Made by a program: the position numbers and the translations under genes | Shown: one piece after another, positions 5,007 to 40,162 of the stretch | Layout of the letters: each line of letters begins with the position of its first letter | Position numbering within the stretch: position 1 is the first letter of the stretch | Notes under the pieces: generated by a model | Told to the model about the DNA's origin: nothing | The model's input: only the letters and a program-made list of their open reading frames with translations | Databases searched by the model: none | From: a virus | Taxonomy: Duplodnaviria > Heunggongvirae > Uroviricota > Caudoviricetes | Virus record (IMG/VR): IMGVR_UViG_2897346870_000001 | Coordinates: 1-41,297 of that record | Strand: one strand, 5' to 3' | Length of the DNA: 41,297 nucleotides

Positions 5007-5087
5007 AACTTGTTACCTCGGTCTGTTACCGTTGAGGTAATAATTATGCGTATTTGGTTTGATGTCAATAGATATGAGTTAAAAAAA

Positions 5088-10141: not shown

Positions 10142-10681
10142 ATGACCCCTTTAACCGATAAGAAACAGTATCCCAGCGAGCAATATCTTAATGAGCTGAT
10201 CACCAACATAGAGTTTGCTGCAAGGGCACCAGTTGAAGTCGTGAGAGCAATGGCAGCAGAGCTACAGAAGCGGCGCGAAGCTGATAGTGCCGAACCTGCA
10301 AGTAATCATGAAGAGTTGCCACTTGATTATCTCCAAGGTCAAAAAGATGGTCTTGAATGGGCTGCGCAGCTTGCAGAAGCAAATCACCCACAAACTGGCG
10401 ACTGGCTTTACGATGACCCGCTGGAGCTGGCTAAAGCTATCAGAAAAGGTCCTGACATGCCCGAATTCGATGGACCAACTCCGGGAACTCCGGATGGTTG
10501 GATAAGCTGTAGTGAGCGAATGCCGAACGACGCGCAGTGGTGCGTAGTGAACACAGAATACGGGTATTACGTGCAATGCTGGTCTGAAGGTCAAGGGTGG
10601 CTTGGTGATGATATCAGCATACCTGAATGCGATGTAATCAATTGGATGCCGCTACCAGAACCGCCGCAGGAGGCGAAATGA
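10142..10681 (+). CDS. DUF551-containing phage protein
   Basis: C-terminal Trp-rich segment ([17 protein letters not shown]...WMPLPEPP) typical of DUF551. Confidence 0.5.
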
Positions 10682-11022
10682 TGGACTATTCACAGTTAAG
10701 TGATTTTGAAATTAACAGAATGGTAGGAGACATAATTTTTAAAGGCCTTTGGGCATGTAAACCGGAAACATCAGGGAATAACACCAACAAATGGTATTAC
10801 GGAAATACTGATACAACTTTTGAGCCATTAAACCCTTTACCTGACTACTGCAATGATCCGAGCGCCTCATGGCCGATTATTGAGAAACACAGGATTTCTA
10901 TCTTAGACCAGTTAACTGAATGGTGTGTGGATGCAAAAGACGTAAGACCAATATTTGATACCAGACCTCTCCGAGCCGCCATGATTGTATTTCTCATGAT
11001 GCAGGAAAATCAGAATGGCTAA
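10678..11022 (+). CDS. Hypothetical phage protein
   Basis: About 114 aa ([16 protein letters not shown]...); ATG overlaps the previous stop; GGAGG Shine-Dalgarno. Confidence 0.45.
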
Positions 11023-11353
11023 ATCAGCAGCAGAGCGCAAAGCCGCTCAGAGAGCCAGACAAGCTGCATCTGGTGTGCGTAAGCTGGAAATTGTGCTTGA
11101 TGCTCAGGAAATTGAAATGCTGGAGCGTAACTGTGCCACGCGTCGCCCCGGGCGTGCGCCTTACGAATTTGGTGAGTATATAGCGTTACTGATCCGCCAA
11201 GATGATGCACGCGTGCACGGGCGTATAAAATCGATCAGCAGAAAACGTTGCGGTAAGTGCGGCGAGAGAGTTCCAGTTAATTCATGTCCGTGTAATGGTG
11301 ACTCACAATGCTGGGTGACTAAAGGCTGGCATGAAACGAAATTAATAGTGTGA
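11015..11353 (+). CDS. Zinc-ribbon protein, candidate late-gene regulator
   Basis: 112 aa; C-terminal [17 protein letters not shown] cysteine cluster; last gene before a promoter-plus-terminator arrangement upstream of the terminase; stop codon lies inside the GTGACATGTCAC palindrome. Confidence 0.4.
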
Positions 11354-11361
11354 CATGTCAC
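11350..11361. promoter_or_regulatory. 12-bp perfect palindrome GTGACATGTCAC (copy 1 of 3)
   Basis: Identical copies at 13615..13626 and 32779..32790, each next to a terminator hairpin. Confidence 0.5.
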
Positions 11362-11402
11362 GAGTAGATTATGCATGATGAATTTGATGGGTTTTGAATA
11401 CT

Positions 11403-11428
11403 GCCGCCAACTATGGCGGCTTTATTTT
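11403..11428 (+). terminator. tR'-like terminator upstream of the late genes
   Basis: GCCGCCA-ACTA-TGGCGGC hairpin followed by TTTATTTT, about 45 nt upstream of the small terminase start. Confidence 0.55.
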
Positions 11429-11471
11429 GCATGGTACTATTACCACAACGGTAACTATTACCACGGTGGTT

Positions 11472-12068
11472 ATGATGCCTGCTGAACCTAAAACCTATAA
11501 ACGCAAATCAACGCAATTTAAGCCACTAACAGCAATGCAGGAGGCTTATTGCCAGTCATACATCAAAACGCCTGAAAACCAGACTCAGGCAGCGATTAAC
11601 GCAGGATTCTCCCCAAATACAGCGGCAGTTAAAGCCAGTGTCATGATGCGCGATGAACGCATTCAAAAACGGATTGCCGAGTTGATGGAGGAGCGCAACA
11701 AACGAATGCGCGTCAGTGCTGATTACGTTCTCATGCGCCTGGTGGAGATCGACCAGATGGACGTGATCGACATCCTCAACGACGATGGGAGCCTTAAACC
11801 AATCCGTGAGTGGCCGAAAATCTGGCGCACTACGCTTAGCGGCTTTGATCTGTCATCGACCATCATGAACATGAACGAGGATTCGATAGAGACAATCCTC
11901 AAAAAAATTAAATGGCCTGACAAGGTGAAGAACCTTGAGCTGATTGGTAAGCATGTTGATGTCAACGCGTTCAAAGAACGCCTGGATGTTAATGTGAATG
12001 TGACAATTGCTGATCGCATAGCGGCAGCCAGGAAGAGACTGAAAGAACGTCAGGATGGCAATCAGTGA
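11472..12068 (+). CDS. Terminase small subunit
   Basis: Terminase_2-type pattern LTAMQEAYCQSYIKTPENQTQAAINAGFSPNTA...IQKRIAEL. Start placed at the internal ATG (MMPAEPK) after the terminator rather than the track start 11394. Confidence 0.75.
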   Translation: MMPAEPKTYKRKSTQFKPLTAMQEAYCQSYIKTPENQTQAAINAGFSPNTAAVKASVMMRDERIQKRIAELMEERNKRMRVSADYVLMRLVEIDQMDVIDILNDDGSLKPIREWPKIWRTTLSGFDLSSTIMNMNEDSIETILKKIKWPDKVKNLELIGKHVDVNAFKERLDVNVNVTIADRIAAARKRLKERQDGNQ

Positions 12069-13540
12069 CAGATACAGCGTTATCTCCTGAAGAGCAGTTG
12101 ATCGAGGATATTGCAGGGTTCACTCACGATCCGCTTGGCTATGCCCTCTATGCGTTCCCGTGGGGGGAAGAAGGGACTGAACTGGCACATGCTACCGGCC
12201 CACGTCAGTGGCAGGCTGATGCGTTCCGAGAGATACGTGATCACCTGCAGAATCCAGCGACGCGCTATCAGCCGCTTATGCTGGCACGCGCTTCTGGTCA
12301 CGGTATTGGTAAATCCGCATTCATCTCAATGCTGATCAACTGGGGCATGTCCACTTGCGAGGATTGTAAGGTCGTGGTGACCGCCAACACCGACAACCAG
12401 CTACGAACGAAGACCTGGCCGGAAATTATCAAGTGGTCGAACCTTGCTATCACGAAAGACTGGTTTACCTGTACCGCTACCGCGATGTACAGCAATGATC
12501 CTGGGCACGACAAGCGGTGGCGAGCTGACGCAATCCCCTGGTCTGAGCACAACACTGAGGCATTCGCCGGACTACACAACGAGCGCAAACGCATCATCGT
12601 GGTATTCGATGAAGCGTCGAACATTGCGGATCTGGTGTGGGAAGTTGCTGAGGGTGCGCTTACGGACGAAGACACTGAGATTATCTGGGTGGCGTTCGGA
12701 AACCCTACACGTAACACCGGGCGTTTCCGCGAATGTTTCCGCAAATATAAACACCGCTGGAAAACTGCGCAGATTGACAGCCGGACGGTGGAAGGCACTA
12801 ACAAACAGCAGTTGCAGAAATGGGTTGATGACTACGGGGAAGACAGCGACTTCGTTAAAATCCGTGTGCGCGGCATATTCCCGGATGCATCTGAATTGCA
12901 GTTTATCCCTACCGGACTTACTGACGAGGCAATGAAACGGGTGGTCACCGCTGCGCAGGTTGCACATGCTCCGGTGATAATCGGCGTTGACCCGGCATAC
13001 TCAGGCGTTGATGACGCTGTGATATACCTGCGGCAGGGGCTGCACAGTAAGGTGCTGTGGACTGGCAACAAGACCACTGACGATCTGATTATGGCGAAGC
13101 GTATCGCTGACTTTGAAGACCGGTACCAGGCTGACGCAGTGTTCATCGACTTCGGTTACGGAACTGGTCTGAAGTCAATCGGTGACGGCTGGGGTCGTAC
13201 ATGGCAACTTGTTCCGTTCGGTGGCGCGTCTACTGACCCGCAGATGCTCAACAAGCGTGGGGAGATGTTCAACTCATGTAAGACATGGCTGAGGCTGGGC
13301 GGCATGCTTGATGACCAGGAAACAGCGGACGACCTGTCGGCGGCAGAGTACAAAGTTCGCGTGGACGGTAAAATCGTTATCGAACCGAAGGAAGATATCA
13401 AGGAGCGGCTTGGGCGTTCTCCTGGTAAAGGCGATGCGCTATTGCTGACGTTTGCTTTCCCTGTGTCGAAGCGTCTGCGAATTCCAGGTCAGCAGAACCA
13501 GCAAGGCAAGGCCATTACAGATTACGATCCCTATGCTTAA
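12065..13540 (+). CDS. Terminase large subunit
   Basis: 491 aa; Walker A-like ARASGHGIGKS and C-terminal nuclease region; ATGA overlap with the small subunit. Confidence 0.85.
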   Translation: MTDTALSPEEQLIEDIAGFTHDPLGYALYAFPWGEEGTELAHATGPRQWQADAFREIRDHLQNPATRYQPLMLARASGHGIGKSAFISMLINWGMSTCEDCKVVVTANTDNQLRTKTWPEIIKWSNLAITKDWFTCTATAMYSNDPGHDKRWRADAIPWSEHNTEAFAGLHNERKRIIVVFDEASNIADLVWEVAEGALTDEDTEIIWVAFGNPTRNTGRFRECFRKYKHRWKTAQIDSRTVEGTNKQQLQKWVDDYGEDSDFVKIRVRGIFPDASELQFIPTGLTDEAMKRVVTAAQVAHAPVIIGVDPAYSGVDDAVIYLRQGLHSKVLWTGNKTTDDLIMAKRIADFEDRYQADAVFIDFGYGTGLKSIGDGWGRTWQLVPFGGASTDPQMLNKRGEMFNSCKTWLRLGGMLDDQETADDLSAAEYKVRVDGKIVIEPKEDIKERLGRSPGKGDALLLTFAFPVSKRLRIPGQQNQQGKAITDYDPYA

Positions 13541-13590: not shown

Positions 13591-13626
13591 AGCCAGCTCA
13601 TAGGCTGGCTGTTTGTGACATGTCAC
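13591..13626 (+). terminator. Hairpin after the terminase, immediately followed by GTGACATGTCAC copy 2
   Basis: AGCCAGC-TCATAG-GCTGGCT hairpin 13591..13610, then GTTT and the 12-bp palindrome at 13615..13626. Confidence 0.4.
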
Positions 13627-13630
13627 GGTG

Positions 13631-14137
13631 TTATTGAATTACAATCCAGTCATCAGATAGCAGATCGGTTTGAGATGCCAGCCACGGTACAAAGCAACCG
13701 TCAGCAGTTTTCATCCCAATCCACGGTAGAAGTTTAACGCCAGGTACAAATGTATACTCGTCACCGCATGTAACGTCAAATCGCCAATCGTTCGGAGTGG
13801 CCGATTGCGGTGGCTTAACCAGTTGCAGATACATGCCTTTGCCATTCCATCCGGCACGTGCAATGCGCTTACCATCTTTGAGTGATGACAAAGCAGTGGA
13901 GAAAGATACTGTTGATATTTCAGAACGTTGTGCTGTTATCCAGTCATGGAACGTAACGCTAGTACCATGGTCTTCGCTAAGAGTTAACCCGGCCAGTCCC
14001 TCACTCTGAATTACTTCGTAATGCATTTCATTACCAGCAAAAACGCCATAAAAAACGCAGTCTTCAGCCTGAACGATACGAGAATATTTTAATGGCCATT
14101 CATTTAGATACTTAGCCAACATATCAATTGTTTTCAT
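13631..14137 (-). CDS. DUF2829-domain protein (Tad2-like candidate anti-defence protein) with unknown N-terminal extension
   Basis: C-terminal half carries the DUF2829 hallmarks ARAGWNGKGMYL and WLASQTDLLSDDWIV; leftward gene in an accessory cassette with a tRNA between the terminase and portal. Confidence 0.6.
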   Translation of the reverse strand: MKTIDMLAKYLNEWPLKYSRIVQAEDCVFYGVFAGNEMHYEVIQSEGLAGLTLSEDHGTSVTFHDWITAQRSEISTVSFSTALSSLKDGKRIARAGWNGKGMYLQLVKPPQSATPNDWRFDVTCGDEYTFVPGVKLLPWIGMKTADGCFVPWLASQTDLLSDDWIVIQ

Positions 14138-14335
14138 GATCTCACCTTAAAAAAATGCCCGGCGACCCGGGCGAACTGGAAGCAATGAGTTATGCCTTCC
14201 GTGGCTGTACTGGTTTACAGCATGAAGTCATCGCAATGGCGTCCTGCTGTAAAAAGGGCGGTGATAGTCCTTCAAGGGAAACCATCACCGCCAAGCACCT
14301 GGAACTTCTGGCATCACGGTCCTTAGGCGTGATTC

Positions 14336-14412
14336 TGGCGTGGCATGCAGGATTCGAACCTGCGACCAACCGCTTAGAAGGCGGTTGCTCTGTCCAACTT
14401 AGCTAATGCCAC
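14336..14412 (-). tRNA. tRNA-Arg (anticodon UCU)
   Basis: 77-nt minus-strand cloverleaf: 7-bp acceptor stem GTGGCAT/ATGCCAC, anticodon stem ACCGC/GCGGT with loop CTTCTAA (UCU), T-arm GCAGG-TTCGAAT-CCTGC, discriminator G plus encoded CCA; close to E. coli argU in the 3' half. Confidence 0.85.
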
Positions 14413-16740: not shown

Positions 16741-17033
16741 CAGATTACGAAGACGATCAACTGAAAGAAGAAAACGCCCGTAAGCAACGTGACATGGCAC
16801 AGCGTGAAATTGATGACATTCGCTTTGTCATGAGCAGTGAACAGGGGCGTCGCGTTGTCTGGTCTGTGCTGGAGAAAGGCCGGGTGTTTTCCGCTATCTC
16901 TCCGATGGATGCTATGGCAATGGCATTTAATGAGGGGCAACGCAATCTGGCGCTGGGACTGTTTCAGCGCGTTATGGCGCATTGCCCTGAACAGTATTTG
17001 AAGATGGCCAAAGAGGCCAGTGAACAGGAGTGA
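16737..17033 (+). CDS. Hypothetical head-module protein
   Basis: 98 aa, translationally coupled to the portal stop. Confidence 0.4.
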   Translation: MTDYEDDQLKEENARKQRDMAQREIDDIRFVMSSEQGRRVVWSVLEKGRVFSAISPMDAMAMAFNEGQRNLALGLFQRVMAHCPEQYLKMAKEASEQE

Positions 17034-19222: not shown

Positions 19223-19567
19223 GTGATATCGATGTCAGGTGAGAAACCAAGATACCGCGTTCTGCGCCTCTCTCATATCCATAACACACTGTGGCCGGAG
19301 GGGGCAGAAATCGAATACGAAGGTGAGCCTGGTAGCGCACTGGAACCTGTTAACGATGCAGCCAGACAGGCAAAAGCAAAGGTAGCAGGAAAGGTGTCTA
19401 TGGCAGCAACCAGCACCAAAATCATCAACGATGTGTCAGATGATGGTGAACTGGATAAGCTCCGTGAAGAGTACGAATTGCTCTTTAACGAGAAGCCACA
19501 CCATAACGCCAAAGCCGAAACGCTCCGCGAGAAGATCGCAGATAAGCGTAAAGAACTGGGCGTGTAA
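19223..19567 (+). CDS. Hypothetical head-module protein
   Basis: 114-aa ORF ending just before the terminator. Confidence 0.4.
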   Translation: MISMSGEKPRYRVLRLSHIHNTLWPEGAEIEYEGEPGSALEPVNDAARQAKAKVAGKVSMAATSTKIINDVSDDGELDKLREEYELLFNEKPHHNAKAETLREKIADKRKELGV

Positions 19568-31766: not shown

Positions 31767-31846
31767 TTACCTTTGCGGTAAATTTACATCGCACTCCTCT
31801 TGTGCCATAGTAATCGGGCACTGGCAAAATCCAGTGCCGGGATTGG
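31767..31846. repeat. Inverted repeat IR-A, left copy (antirepressor promoter/leader)
   Basis: About 80 bp, near-identical in reverse complement to 34928..35007; includes operator TTACCTTTGCGGTAA (31767..31781) and the palindromic hairpin GCACTGG-CAAAAT-CCAGTGC. Confidence 0.8.
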
Positions 31847-32048
31847 TCTCCCGGATTACTACAGAGGCACATATGCCGCATAAGCGGTTTTTTTATGTGT
31901 AAAGCGCACCTATTCTATGGTGGGCTGTGTGGGGGCACCGAAAGGTGCGCCGGGTTCCTTTGTAGCCGGTAAGACCAACTCTGCACAGTTCACCACCATC
32001 TGATTGGTCTCAGCGGTGGTGATTAACCTAACTACAAAGGTGATCGCC

Positions 32049-32741
32049 ATGAATACCAAACCTTCCATCTTTTCCTTTGAGTCATCCTGCCAGATCCGTA
32101 TGTTCATGATTGACGGAGAACCTTGGTTTGTCACCAAAGATGTGTGCAATGCTTTGAATATTGATGTTACACAAGCGAGAAAACTTGATAAAAAAGGCTG
32201 GAACAAAAAGGGGCTGTATTCAATACAGACCCCTGGTGGAATACAAGAACTATCCATCGTTTCAGAATCAGGTCTCTACATCCTTATTCTGCGTTGCAAA
32301 GAGGCAATGACTGAGGGAACGAGAGCATTCAGATTTCTTGAATGGGTTACAGGTGAGGTTCTTCCTCAGATCCGCCGCACCGGAAGCTACATTAAAAACT
32401 CGCTCCCGCAGGAAGAGCGCATAAAGATGGTTGCCGACCAGGTAGCCAACGCCACGGCGTCAGCAGTAATGCAGGCGATGAAGATAGAGAACAAAACCTA
32501 CAGTGCCCCACTGAAGCCCGGCTACCGCAGCCTGATTCATTCGCCGTCTGGTGTTCTCGGCCTGACGGAGAACTCACTGCTGATGAATCTGCTGAACCAG
32601 TTACAGGAAGACGGGCATGACGTATCGGGCGCGGCGGCGGAGTTGACCACCATGTTCTGCTACATCGTCGGTGTGAACAAATGCCTGCGTGATATCCAGA
32701 CGCACGCGGAGTACATCAACGACAAAGCAGGGTTCTTCTGA
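32049..32741 (+). CDS. Antirepressor, BRO-N N-terminal domain plus shared C-terminal domain (copy 1)
   Basis: N-terminus MNTKPSIFSFESSCQIRMFMIDGEPWFVTKDVCNALNI is a BRO-N-type fold; C-terminal 125 aa nearly identical to the gene at 34013..34723; AGGTGA Shine-Dalgarno. Confidence 0.7.
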   Translation: MNTKPSIFSFESSCQIRMFMIDGEPWFVTKDVCNALNIDVTQARKLDKKGWNKKGLYSIQTPGGIQELSIVSESGLYILILRCKEAMTEGTRAFRFLEWVTGEVLPQIRRTGSYIKNSLPQEERIKMVADQVANATASAVMQAMKIENKTYSAPLKPGYRSLIHSPSGVLGLTENSLLMNLLNQLQEDGHDVSGAAAELTTMFCYIVGVNKCLRDIQTHAEYINDKAGFF

Positions 32742-32778: not shown

Positions 32779-32815
32779 GTGACATGTCACAGGCCGCTTT
32801 CGCGGCCTTGTTTTT
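32779..32815 (+). terminator. GTGACATGTCAC copy 3 fused to a strong rho-independent terminator
   Basis: Palindrome 32779..32790 directly followed by AGGCCGC-TTTC-GCGGCCT plus TGTTTTT (32791..32815). Confidence 0.7.
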
Positions 32816-32975
32816 AACGAATGCCACCGCCACCCGGGCGGGAATCCGCAGAACGCCCACCGCAGCGGGAGCCGTCAGCAGCAGTGTCGCTGTCGTGCTG
32901 ACAACGACCGGCAAAGGCCTGAGTTGAAGCTACCAGAGACAACAAAACGAACAGTGCAGCAAATGCTTTTTTCAT
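32814..32975 (-). CDS. Small secreted protein (53 aa) with signal peptide
   Basis: MKKAFAALFVLLSLVASTQAFA signal peptide then a Gly/Arg/Asp-rich 31-aa mature region with two Cys; start at the internal ATG of track ORF 32814..33047. Confidence 0.4.
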   Translation of the reverse strand: MKKAFAALFVLLSLVASTQAFAGRCQHDSDTAADGSRCGGRSADSRPGGGGIR

Positions 32976-34010: not shown

Positions 34011-34413
34011 TGTCAGAAGAACCCTGCCTTGTCGTTGATGTACTCCGCGTGCGTCTGGATATCACGCAGGCATTTGCTCACACCGACGATGTAGCAGAAC
34101 ATGGTGGTCAGTTCCGCCGCCGCGCCCGATACATCATGCCCGTCGTCCTGCAACTGATTCAGCAGATTCATCAGCAATGAGTTCTCCGTCAGGCCGAGAA
34201 CACCAGACGGCGAATGAATCAGACTGCGGTAGCCGGGCTTCAGCGGGGCGCTGTAGGTTTTGTTCTCTATCTTCATCGCCTGCATTACTGCTGACGCCGT
34301 GGCGTTGGCTACCTGGTCGGCAACCATCTTTATGCGTTCTTCCTGCGGGAGCGAGTTTTTAATGTAACTTCCGGTGCGGCGGATCTGAGGAAGAACCTCA
34401 CCTGTAACCCATT
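34011..34413. repeat. Inverted repeat IR-B, right copy
   Basis: Reverse complement of 32341..32743. Confidence 0.85.
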
Positions 34414-34723
34414 TGCGAAAGCGGTAGGGGATAGTGCCTGGTGTCACTGCGTCGCGGCAGCGGAGGATCAGTGTGTAGAGGCCTGACTCGGAGATGATGT
34501 TGATCTCTTTTACTCGGCTGTCAAAAATTGCACGATGTTCATGCCCTATGTTGAACATAGACCTTTCATCATCATCCAGTTTTTCAAGTGCTTGGGTGAC
34601 GTTTTGGATACGCAGCGCACTACAAACGTCTTGGGCTACAAACCATGGTTGGCCATCGATAATGATGGAACGGATAGGGTTAACAGATTCAAATTTGAAG
34701 ATGGCAGTTTGAGCATTAGCCAT
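34013..34723 (-). CDS. Antirepressor, BRO-N N-terminal domain plus shared C-terminal domain (copy 2)
   Basis: N-terminus MANAQTAIFKFESVNPIRSIIIDGQPWFVAQDVCSALRI (BRO-N-type); C-terminal domain differs from copy 1 at only 2 of about 118 residues; GGAG Shine-Dalgarno. Confidence 0.7.
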   Translation of the reverse strand: MANAQTAIFKFESVNPIRSIIIDGQPWFVAQDVCSALRIQNVTQALEKLDDDERSMFNIGHEHRAIFDSRVKEINIISESGLYTLILRCRDAVTPGTIPYRFRKWVTGEVLPQIRRTGSYIKNSLPQEERIKMVADQVANATASAVMQAMKIENKTYSAPLKPGYRSLIHSPSGVLGLTENSLLMNLLNQLQDDGHDVSGAAAELTTMFCYIVGVSKCLRDIQTHAEYINDKAGFF

Positions 34724-34927
34724 GGTGGTTATCTCCACTTAGTGATTTTAATCACCACCGCAACGCCAATTACTGGTGGTGAACTGGACAAGGTTGGCGT
34801 ACCGGCCTAAGTGGTACCGGCGTCCTTTCGGACCCCTGCCCAGCCCACCATAATTCGGATATAGCTGTGCTTAACGCATAAAAAAACCACGTCTGGCGTG
34901 GTATGCGCCACTTAGTAACTCGGGACG

Positions 34928-35007
34928 CCAATCCCGGCACTGGATTTTGCCAGTACCCGATTACTATGGCACAAGAGGAGTGCGATGTAAATTTACCTCA
35001 AAGGTAA
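34928..35007. repeat. Inverted repeat IR-A, right copy (antirepressor 2 promoter/leader)
   Basis: Reverse complement of 31767..31846; contains operator at 34993..35007 (TTACCTCAAAGGTAA). Confidence 0.8.
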
Positions 35008-40032: not shown

Positions 40033-40162
40033 TTTCCGGTGACGGTATATAAAACGGTACGGCGAAAATCAGGTTGCAGAAAGTTGTTATCAGTCAATTG
40101 GTTATGTGTGTCGTAAATAATTGAGTGGGAATGATTTGACCCTGCACTATGAATGAACAAAA

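Follow-up and report, generated by a model that had tools for sequence, protein, structure and literature searches.

We found that a small gene at the early/late junction of the window, the whole 41,297-nt stretch of phage DNA analyzed here, encodes a 112-aa protein, X, of an unstudied family of putative DNA-binding proteins. Together with the palindrome GTGAC-NN-GTCAC, into which its gene ends, X forms a regulator and its putative cognate site at transcription-unit boundaries. X probably represents a novel type of early-to-late switch, and the most likely reading, which we put forward tentatively, is that X is a Q-like read-through factor that acts from adjoining palindromes.

The DNA of the window is that of a temperate podophage (prophage) of epsilon15/phiV10-like type, 97.7% identical to TL-2011b. 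The first-pass annotation of this DNA had described T7/podovirus-like virion genes without a phage RNA polymerase, and a lambdoid early region, and both descriptions were confirmed: we found a T7-type portal (PF12236), a capsid of the epsilon15 GP7 type, no phage RNA polymerase among the large ORFs, and early ORFs matching a repressor, Cro-like, O-like and P-like proteins, Ea22, DUF551 and NinX. No Q or N family was matched by the early ORFs tested (Pfam and PHROG). The first late gene is that of the small terminase subunit (terS, 11475-12068, + strand; Pfam Terminase_2, E 1e-29, and the TL-2011b annotation). The phage carries 11 copies of the repressor operator TTACC-N5-GGTAA, with one present at each of the terS, portal operon and ant units, and the late operons appear to carry their own repressor-controlled promoters, a function that for terS is putative.

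Gene X (11015-11353, + strand) closes the rightward early operon. Its sole match in the PHROG scan and a Pfam scan at E ≤ 1 was phrog_536 (E 1.5e-54, residues 1-111 on profile positions 2-114 of 115), labelled 'transcriptional regulator'; we found no experiment behind this label, and the paper on ZX5, a close relative, does not mention the protein. The structural model (AlphaFold with a 58-sequence alignment; a single-sequence run gave pLDDT 44) predicts a basic, Arg-rich N-terminal helix, a ribbon-helix-helix (RHH) and a C-terminal Cys-rich, zinc-ribbon-like domain, and the central part shows the beta-strand/helix/helix fold that dimerises in the RHH superfamily. In the family alignment, Cys 79 and 82 are invariant and Cys 99 is nearly so, and the fourth Cys lies at ~92-94, at a position that varies across the family. 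The small zinc-ribbon gene reported before the terminase is thus real. It had also been held to be unrelated to Q, and a comparison with the Pfam and PHROG Q families bore this out, with no match to X. The hosts of the family are mostly Enterobacterales, Vibrio and Aeromonas.

The best PDB sequence matches of the X family profile were TraR and YbiI, at sub-threshold E values of 0.024-0.035, and the motif CxxCGxx(I/L)P is common to the family and these RNA polymerase-binding zinc-finger proteins. As in the C4 zinc finger of TraR/DksA (CxxC-N17-CxxC), a helix is followed by CxxCGxx(I/L)P...C; however, X retains one Cys of the last CxxC, the fourth ligand is elsewhere, and the preceding helix belongs to the RHH core. 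TraR was absent from the structural matches of the X model, and Foldseek against PDB and BFVD returned nothing informative. X resembles Arc, Mnt, CopG, omega and toxin-antitoxin antitoxins in its RHH fold, in the size of its DNA-binding module and in a short palindromic or repeated site, and the heptad spacing of omega equals the 7-bp centre-to-centre distance of the pentamers of the X site. Those small regulators act on operators located at promoters, where they repress initiation, whereas the X sites are at gene 3' ends and X adds the N-terminal basic helix and the zinc-ribbon domain. A role as a homing endonuclease or other nuclease was rejected: X lacks any nuclease motif, and the genome that carries it retains intact sites.

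The palindrome that had been noticed upstream of the terminator is indeed there, as the perfect 12-bp sequence GTGACATGTCAC at 11350-11361, and the TGA stop codon of X (11351-11353) is inside it. Three exact matches to this 12-mer lie in the window, at 11350, 13615 and 32779, and the chance expectation for GTGAC-NN-GTCAC in 41 kb is ~0.04 copies. X-carrying phages have one to three copies each (three apiece in the window, epsilon15, N15 and Vibrio K308), and the genomes of lambda and P22 have none. The X stop codon is within the palindrome at 200 of 217 loci, or in 82 of 92 distinct contexts, and these loci are spread over three subfamilies (92, 55 and 53) that have 32-41% mutual amino-acid identity. 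At all loci, the last sense codon of X ends in G regardless of the amino acid. The sequence 3' of the gene-end palindrome is unrelated between loci, and what follows varies among a terminator, an RBS plus gene, and a LexA-box promoter.

The GTGAC/GTCAC arms are invariant across proteins of ~30% identity, with no compensatory changes, and the 2-nt centre varies freely. Since the centre differs even inside one genome, X does not covary with the central dinucleotide. Hence, the palindrome is best explained as the site of a dimeric, sequence-specific protein and not as an RNA stem. In this it departs from lambda N/nut, where compensatory variation would be expected of an RNA hairpin site; the Arg-rich N-terminal helix of X recalls N, but in X an RHH fold follows it. 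A literature search for the palindrome sequence gave no match, and to our knowledge no CRP, LexA, Fur or LacI-type site fits it. The palindrome is a family-wide site tied to the X stop codon and not a promoter element.

Between copy 1 and the late genes lies an A+T-rich linker of 41 nt (11362-11402, + strand; 23-24 nt in epsilon15-type relatives), which contains CATGAT (11374-11379) and GATGAATTTGATGGGTT. The latter resembles lambda's AACGATGGGTT and is kept in the relative L090. The linker is followed by the intrinsic terminator T1 (11403-11428, + strand, GCCGCCaactatGGCGGC plus TTTATTTTG), which ends the early-right operon. The earlier call of a terminator here was correct: a stem of 7 bp at 11403-11420, with 6 G-C pairs, precedes TTTATTTTG, and a rho-independent terminator is annotated in epsilon15. 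Folding the RNA of 11340-11440 gave the terminator and a weak palindrome hairpin, with no convincing alternative (antiterminator) structure.

Downstream of T1 lies the putative terS promoter/operator region (11432-11461, + strand). It comprises a conserved, extended -10-like TGgTACTAT (11432-11440), the repressor operator TTACCACAACGGTAA (11440-11454), whose counterpart in epsilon15 is an annotated repressor binding site, and a second -10-like element, AACTAT/TATTAC (11453-11461). The region forms a direct repeat, ACTATTACCAC twice, and -10-like repeats flank the operator (11435-11461); a -35 is poor or absent, T1 is conserved at a constant 37 nt from the operator, and no terminator lies between the repeats and terS. 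The palindrome is 70 nt upstream of this region.

We found the other two copies beside hairpins as well, and a strong hairpin lies within 45 nt of every copy (3/3 in the window and 3/3 in epsilon15). Copy 2 (13615-13626) belongs to an arrangement at 13591-13626 of hairpin T2, GTTT and palindrome, flanked by the terL stop (13540) and, at 13631, by the stop of a reverse-strand, Tad2-like moron. The T2 hairpin (13591-13610) is a strong terminator on the - strand and has a weak T-tract on the + strand, where copy 2 is 4 nt past it. Copy 3 (32779-32790, + strand) is directly followed by the strong terminator T3, a stem at 32791-32808 plus TGTTTTTAAC (the whole unit spanning 32779-32818); it ends the isrK-C4-antirepressor unit, faces a converging - strand gene, and has the same arrangement in epsilon15 at 19517. 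At copies 2 and 3, the palindrome stands behind the hairpin precisely in the direction that has no T-tract.

In distant lambdoid relatives, X occupies the position of Q. It is the last or near-last early gene in L223, L224, L226, L227, L236, L222 and Vibrio K308 (L004), and downstream of it in those contigs are a lambda/P22-type late promoter, one to three terminators, and holin and lysozyme genes; L219 has the same late region farther downstream of X. The late promoters have the layout -35, 17 nt, -10, 6 nt, and a second -10-like hexamer followed by GG or GA. By sequence, nine distant lambdoid loci have this second, sigma-pause-like hexamer and terminators downstream of X, and scans of their neighborhoods with Pfam and PHROG revealed no recognisable Q gene near X. 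The palindrome is 48-98 nt upstream of the late -35 across the relatives, and the late start sites follow it by ~90-95 bp; in five divergent lambdoid loci its end is 48-55 nt from the -35 and 74-78 nt from the -10. Similarly, TACTAT in the window starts 73 nt past the palindrome end and the second TATTAC of epsilon15 76 nt past it, with a 17-nt difference in spacing between window-type and epsilon15-type loci.

X also coexists with a Q homologue (N15), with an Ogr-position regulator (Yersinia P2-like phages) and with Mor (a Mu-like contig), so it is not simply the Q of Q-less phages. In N15, one copy of the site is 24 nt upstream of what reads as a TTGACG-18-TAGAGT promoter in the ant region. 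Two sites stand in tandem in L231, at a convergent junction that lacks any hairpin.

As in lambda Q and P22 gp23, X is a small regulator encoded by the last early gene with its cis site immediately downstream; the X relatives share the lambda/P22 late promoter layout, followed by terminators and lysis genes, and terminators separate early and late genes as in lambda. Unlike the Q families, X has no sequence or HMM similarity to them, its predicted fold is RHH plus a zinc-ribbon-like domain, it coexists with Q in N15, and its site, a perfect palindrome, sits at the stop codon or beside terminators and not near or within the late promoter. In contrast to lambda pR', the conserved promoter-like element of the window comes after the terminator and is repressor-controlled. 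The Q-like switch postulated earlier for this junction is therefore retained in part: a regulator-like gene unrelated to Q is at the early/late junction, but the wiring is not as proposed.

In the reading that we favor, X dimers would bind GTGAC-N2-GTCAC, and the three copies would mark three hairpin/terminator barriers along the rightward path, which leads out of the early operon into terS-terL, then into the portal and structural genes, and on to the tailspike and lysis genes. Bound X would engage RNA polymerase that passes or initiates nearby, leading to read-through of adjacent and downstream terminators. Action in cis is favored because the site adjoins the gene, as for lambda Q and qut, which act in cis. 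Since the late operons also seem to have repressor-controlled promoters of their own, any read-through brought about by X would supplement this control and would not be the sole route to late expression. This proposal draws on the stop-codon linkage of site and gene across three divergent subfamilies, the one to three sites per X phage against ~0.04 expected, the strong hairpin near every copy in the window and epsilon15, the Q position of X in lambdoid relatives with no recognisable Q, the absence of Q, N or phage RNA polymerase homologues among the tested ORFs of the window, and the RNA polymerase-binding proteins TraR and YbiI as best, though sub-threshold, profile matches. Against it, X is found alongside Q, an Ogr-position regulator and Mor; many gene-end palindromes are followed directly, without a terminator, by an RBS plus gene or by a LexA-box promoter; the tandem sites of L231 have no hairpin; and copy 2 is reached on the + strand 4 nt after the terL hairpin, when termination there can no longer be prevented. 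The site is also ~90-95 bp upstream of the late starts, whereas known Q binding elements are near the promoter acted on, and antitermination is not strictly required, because the terS, portal operon and ant units have repressor operators. A more specific version, that X would be a fourth class of Q-type late antiterminator with no structural relation to the three known classes, an RHH/zinc-ribbon dimer with a DNA-reading module sharing MatP ancestry and loaded onto RNA polymerase from the 12-bp palindrome, located either ~90-95 bp ahead of a lambda-style late promoter or right next to a terminator, is in our estimation unlikely.

Several features would also suit a roadblock or insulator, in which palindrome-bound X halts RNA polymerase at transcription-unit boundaries, supplies termination where the neighboring hairpin has no T-tract, and shields late, SOS-controlled and integrase units from early transcription. 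This accounts for sites at gene 3' ends and convergent junctions, including the two tandem sites between converging genes in L231, for the T-tract-less orientation at copies 2 and 3, for every downstream context (RBS plus gene, LexA promoter, integrase module), and is compatible with phages equipped with a Q, Ogr or Mor of their own. We regard it as doubtful nonetheless: it would duplicate what the intrinsic terminators, strong in the + direction, already do at copies 1 and 3, would leave lambdoid relatives with terminator-containing late leaders without a candidate antiterminator, and does not explain the recurrent 48-55 nt to the downstream -35. That spacing in five divergent loci would fit an upstream activator or modulator, with X, ~90-95 bp from the start, tuning the late promoter and leaving termination unaffected; in the window its target would be the weak, repressor-controlled terS promoter. 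The poor or absent -35 of that promoter agrees with activation, as do the similarity of 73 nt (window) and 76 nt (epsilon15) to the 74-78 nt of the lambdoid loci and the N15 copy 24 nt before its promoter. Yet the lambdoid late promoters are near consensus and should need no activation, their obvious control point being the leader terminators; many sites have no downstream promoter, and the 17-nt difference between window-type and epsilon15-type loci is not expected. We consider activation quite unlikely.

The first-pass annotation had placed a promoter at 11350-11400 and read the order as promoter, then terminator. Taken literally, this has a -35, GTGACA, within the palindrome, with X loading there as on a Q element and a short RNA ending at T1, like the lambda 6S RNA. 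We found GTGACA-18-CATGAT in the window, and epsilon15 has GTGACA-17-TAAATT, with the same -10 hexamer as lambda pR'; the linker sequence TTTGATGGGTT, kept in L090, also resembles lambda's pause-inducing AACGATGGGTT. However, GTGACA-18-CATGAT is a 9/12 sigma-70 match, and a 7-kb scan yielded 6 matches of this grade compared to 9.0 ± 3.3 in shuffles, which is chance level. The candidate -10 is not conserved, reading CGCGAT in L090 (80% identical) and TCAATT in L098, and the conserved promoter-like element is instead after the terminator, at 11432-11440. Moreover, the RNA would be just ~30-40 nt, with the hairpin starting from ~+3 in epsilon15; copies 2 and 3 lie so close to hairpins that a promoter would not fit; and the palindrome of the relatives is 48-98 nt upstream of the actual late -35 and does not overlap it. 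The proposed promoter and its order were not supported, and we judge the literal model very unlikely. The palindrome might also be no X site at all and hitch-hike as a module junction, a recombination hotspot or an RNA 3'-end element. Similarity between relatives stops exactly at the palindrome, after X and after terL alike, unrelated morons abut it at 4-5 nt, and an RNA hairpin of 4-5 bp is possible; but invariant arms over 30%-identity divergence, with a free centre and no compensatory changes, its absence from lambda and P22, and the lack of an associated recombinase make this explanation exceedingly improbable.

The half-sites GTGAC/GTCAC are identical to those of matS, GTGAC[AG]N[TC]GTCAC (consensus GTGACATTGTCAC; PMC3603311, PMC8669397), and MatP has an RHH-type DNA-binding core (PMC12756933). 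X and MatP thus share an RHH-type core at the level of the (predicted) fold, and few sites dispersed over each replicon. X could have an architectural role, bridging or organizing phage DNA at its few matS-like sites or interfering with host MatP/matS or MukBEF, with indirect transcriptional effects only. The hosts of the family, mostly Enterobacterales, Vibrio and Aeromonas, are of clades that have MatP. The X site differs from matS in that one central base is missing (a 2-nt centre and 12 bp, compared to 3 nt and 13 bp), and the 13-bp matS is absent from the window, which has one 1-mismatch match, at chance level. X has no significant sequence similarity to E. coli MatP (hhalign E 0.13, BLASTP E 1.3, where the MatP homologues returned were almost all at least 97% identical, with one at 69%, and formed no diverse MatP profile). 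The MatP domains PF06303 and PF17414 had no match in 58 family members (X and 57 others), and X has a Cys-rich C-terminal domain and not the four-helix bundle and C-terminal coiled coil of MatP. Since an architectural role also leaves the sites at phage gene ends and terminators unexplained, we consider it highly improbable. The half-site identity raises the question of whether the X family and MatP have a common origin, and that of cross-talk between them; none of the prophages in an earlier survey contained the 13-bp matS (PMC3603311).

Literature searches, the ZX5 paper included, returned nothing relevant on late-gene control in epsilon15/phiV10-type phages, which include serotype-converting phages of Salmonella and E. 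coli. For these phages, the present analysis supplies a putative regulator-site pair and maps its three sites along with the 11 repressor operators. Because X is at the Q position in diverse lambdoid phages with no recognisable Q, its family may be a missing antiterminator class.

At copy 2, the left flank is conserved and the right flank in relatives consists of many unrelated reverse-strand cassettes. Since this post-terL copy forms the fixed border of a hypervariable slot, which in the window holds the Tad2-like anti-Thoeris gene, the slot should be useful for finding anti-defense cargo.

The window belongs to an epsilon15-like (Uetakevirus) temperate podophage, since its positions 10600-12100 share 97.7% identity with Escherichia phage TL-2011b and also match phiV10, ZX5, PAS61 and, more distantly, epsilon15. 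Gene order, taken from TL-2011b and epsilon15 annotation, begins with the integrase, leftward early operon, repressor, Cro-like gene and O-like and P-like replication genes; continues with Ea22, DUF551, NinX, the 112-aa ORF studied here (X) and the small and large terminase genes (terS and terL); and ends with a reverse-strand moron, portal and structural genes, a reverse-moron block, tailspike and lysis genes. The first-pass annotation had described T7/podovirus-like virion genes, lambdoid early regulation and replication, and no phage RNA polymerase gene, and this description held: Pfam identified a T7-type portal (PF12236), an epsilon15 GP7 capsid and an internal protein with an SLT domain, the O-like and P-like genes carry over from the reference annotations, and a search of the window's large ORFs found no RNA polymerase. 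No Q-family or N-family match was found among the early ORFs tested. The leftward operon also encodes a PerC-family transcriptional activator homologue (PF06069; 2089-2388, - strand) and an MT-A70 DNA methyltransferase (1446-2108, - strand), and a tRNA gene (14339-14412, - strand; Rfam RF00005, 69 bits) lies in the space separating moron and portal operon, adjoined by two strong - strand terminators (14157-14172 and 14257-14292).

X matches no Pfam family and is a member of phrog_536 (E 1.5e-54), a small family with 152 clusters at 50% identity among 1.84 billion representatives; no experiments on any member were found in the literature searched. Its AlphaFold model, from a 58-sequence alignment, is confident (pLDDT 92) and has a helix (5-19), an extended stretch (20-29), two helices (30-42 and 52-75), a Cys-rich segment (78-99) and a last helix (100-108). 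Conservation is complete or nearly so at R8 and R13 (both in the basic helix), R43, E54, L59, C79, C82, P87, G95 and C99. The best PDB sequence matches of the family profile were the DksA/TraR zinc fingers TraR and YbiI, which span X residues 48-109 and have the motif CxxCGxx(I/L)P in common; at E 0.02-0.04, this likeness is only a lead.

We gathered more than 200 X-homologue loci from viral and genome collections and found the TGA stop of X inside the palindrome G-TGA-C-NN-GTCAC in 200 of 217 untruncated loci (82 of 92 distinct contexts). These were 92 epsilon15-type, 55 Yersinia P2-type and 53 N15-type loci, and protein identity among the three subfamilies is only 32-41%. The last sense codon of X always ends in G, irrespective of the amino acid encoded, and where the gene end has shifted, the palindrome is still within ~10 nt. 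Whole X-carrying genomes have 1-3 copies vs ~0.04 expected by chance (three each in N15 and Vibrio phage K308, one plus a half-site in a Yersinia phage); the window has three exact 12-mers (11350, 13615 and 32779), epsilon15 has three in equivalent places, and lambda and P22 have none. The arms are invariant with no compensatory changes, and the 2-nt centre differs between copies, even in the same genome, a pattern that looks like that of a site for a dimeric sequence-specific protein and not that of an RNA stem. There is good support for X and GTGAC-N2-GTCAC being a cognate pair, and we infer that the conserved basic helix and ribbon-helix-helix of X read the palindrome arms. A one-mismatch palindrome, GTGACATGGCAC, lies in coding sequence just after the portal gene (16789-16800; ~1.2 expected by chance).

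Sequence 3' of the palindrome is unrelated between loci: it may be a terminator and terS, a ribosome-binding site (RBS) and small ORF, LexA-box promoters with umuD-like or other morons, or a DUF4224-like gene near an integrase. Hence, the gene-end site is not consistently paired with a terminator. In the LexA-box loci, found in some epsilon15-like prophages, the palindrome leads into a putative TTGACT/TTGACG-17-TACTGT promoter with a canonical LexA box (TACTGT-N8-ACAGTA), after 6 nt in L057, L059, L082, L060 and L091 and after 7 nt in L058 and L065; this promoter would drive a umuD-like gene or other moron inserted 5' of terS. L027 and ~20 further prophage loci of E. coli have, directly after the palindrome and in place of linker and terminator, a small ORF (MPKIRYDLEDMRDN...) that carries its own RBS, and the second palindrome is thereby ~186 bp further away.

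MatP was among the structural matches of X and had the most aligned residues (72) of the top ten. Its site, matS, is GTGAC[AG]N[TC]GTCAC (PMC3603311, PMC8669397), and the phage site GTGACATGTCAC equals the E. coli consensus GTGACATTGTCAC less one central base. Sequence comparisons with E. coli MatP were not significant, and the MatP Pfam domain matched no X-family member scanned. Hence, the resemblance is confined to fold class and half-site, and any common ancestry is hypothetical. The 13-bp matS is absent from the window, and a published survey found it in none of the prophages examined (PMC3603311).

At the X-terS junction, the first-pass annotation had proposed a promoter within 11350-11400, then a terminator and the terminase, with X as a Q-like factor. 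The ORF (11015-11353, + strand), the palindrome including the TGA stop (11350-11361), terminator T1 (11403-11428; stem 11403-11420 plus T-tract) and the terS start (11475) are all present. The promoter fared poorly: the interval has a single 9/12 consensus match (GTGACA-18-CATGAT), the scan gave fewer matches than shuffled sequence, and the candidate -10 is lost in diverged relatives. Around the repressor operator before terS there are an extended -10-like TGgTACTAT (11432-11440) and a second element, AACTAT/TATTAC (11453-11461), and epsilon15 has the same layout. Hence, the best promoter candidate lies 3' of T1, not 5'; every promoter and pause-element assignment here is by sequence inspection. 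The first codons of terS contain a tandem 10-nt repeat, ATAAACGCAA/ATCAACGCAA (11497-11516).

Each of the three palindromes in the window has a hairpin nearby. Copy 1 is 41 nt 5' of T1. Copy 2 is 4 nt 3' of the terL hairpin (13591-13610), a good terminator on the - strand only, and another 4 nt separate it from the stop of a reverse-strand Tad2-like (Thoeris anti-defence 2) gene (13631-14137; PF11195, E 1e-23); in relatives, the left flank of this copy is conserved and the right flank is one of many unrelated reverse-strand cassettes with stops 4-5 nt from the palindrome. Copy 3 is 37 nt 3' of an antirepressor-like gene and abuts a strong + strand terminator (32791-32808). On the + strand, these three hairpins are the barriers between the early operon and the end of the lysis cassette; the only other strong + strand terminator in the window, at 40159, closes that cassette.

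Among distant relatives, we found one late-region architecture in nine lambdoid loci (L223, L224, L226, L227, L236, L222, L231, L219 and Vibrio phage K308, L004). In most of them, X comes last or nearly last among the early genes, with the late region further downstream in L219 and L231. The putative late promoter has a near-consensus -35, 17 nt, a -10, 6 nt, a second -10-like hexamer and then GGTG/GATG, the same spacing as TAAATT-6-AACGAT-GGG of lambda/P22; 1-3 intrinsic terminators, holin and lysozyme follow. Counted from the -35, the nearest palindrome ends 48-55 nt upstream in five loci and 97-98 nt upstream in two; in the other two it is far away. No Q-family match was found among the genes neighbouring X in the lambdoid relatives, and nothing else supports a Q-like role of X as strongly as this Q-position architecture without a Q neighbour. 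The 11-mer CACGGTGGTTA, just 5' of the window's terS start (11461-11471), is identical in L226 (8524-8534), where it occupies the pause-element position of the late promoter; this may be coincidence, since GGTGG doubles as the terS Shine-Dalgarno.

There is also good support for the pair as a marker of transcription-unit boundaries, located at or close to where early operons end. For the direction of its effect, we tentatively favour Q-like promotion of read-through, in which X at its sites would carry transcription past the barriers on the late path, for four reasons: an antiterminator is needed in the lambdoid relatives, where X is the only candidate; strong + strand terminators follow two of the three window sites; all three late-path barriers carry a site; and a site at X's own gene end fits preferential cis action. 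The Q position of X in lambdoid relatives speaks for this reading. N15, which carries X (gene 46) together with a Q homologue (gene 40) and has a late promoter and terminator of its own annotated, counts against simple equivalence of X and Q.

A roadblock or insulator seems unlikely overall, and it better accounts for X alongside other regulators, that is, Q in N15, a regulator at the Ogr position in Yersinia P2-like phages (X after gpA) and Mor in a Mu-like contig (X just 5' of GemA and Mor). It also better accounts for convergent junctions, such as L231 8475-8509, where converging Bro-N and HTH genes have two tandem TGTGACGCGTCAC sites, 23 bp apart, and an extra half-site between their stops but no hairpin terminator. 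Upstream activation by X would explain the recurrent spacing to promoters and is, in our estimate, rather improbable; the literal promoter-terminator order at the X-terS junction lacks support and is still less probable. The N15 palindromes (28550, 33237 and 39269; loci L214 and L002) include one at the gene 46 stop, one inside repA and a third that is followed after 24 nt by a promoter-like element, TTGACG-18-TAGAGT, and after ~115 nt by the annotated terminator preceding the antirepressor operon. In Chlobot and Pantoea prophages, X is near xis/int modules.

Apart from X, the window has 11 TTACC-N4-5-GGTAA inverted repeats vs 0.09 expected, matching the repressor sites (ATTACC-N4/5-GGTAAT) that the epsilon15 record annotates at the immunity region and 5' of terS, the portal operon and tailspike. 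They are at 5026, 5088 and 5800 (immunity region), 8131, 8193, 10059, 11440 (between T1 and terS), 14735 (5' of the portal operon), and 31767, 33925 and 34993 (ant and moron block). The prophage repressor thus appears to control the late operons directly, via their own repressor-controlled promoters, with operators ahead of terS, the portal operon and the antirepressor units. A module made up of an isrK sRNA, a C4 antisense RNA and Bro-N/antirepressor (RF01394, RF01695) is present twice in opposite orientations (31818-32741, + strand, and 34013-34956, - strand), each copy adjoining a repressor operator, and the two Ant-like proteins have near-identical C-terminal halves.
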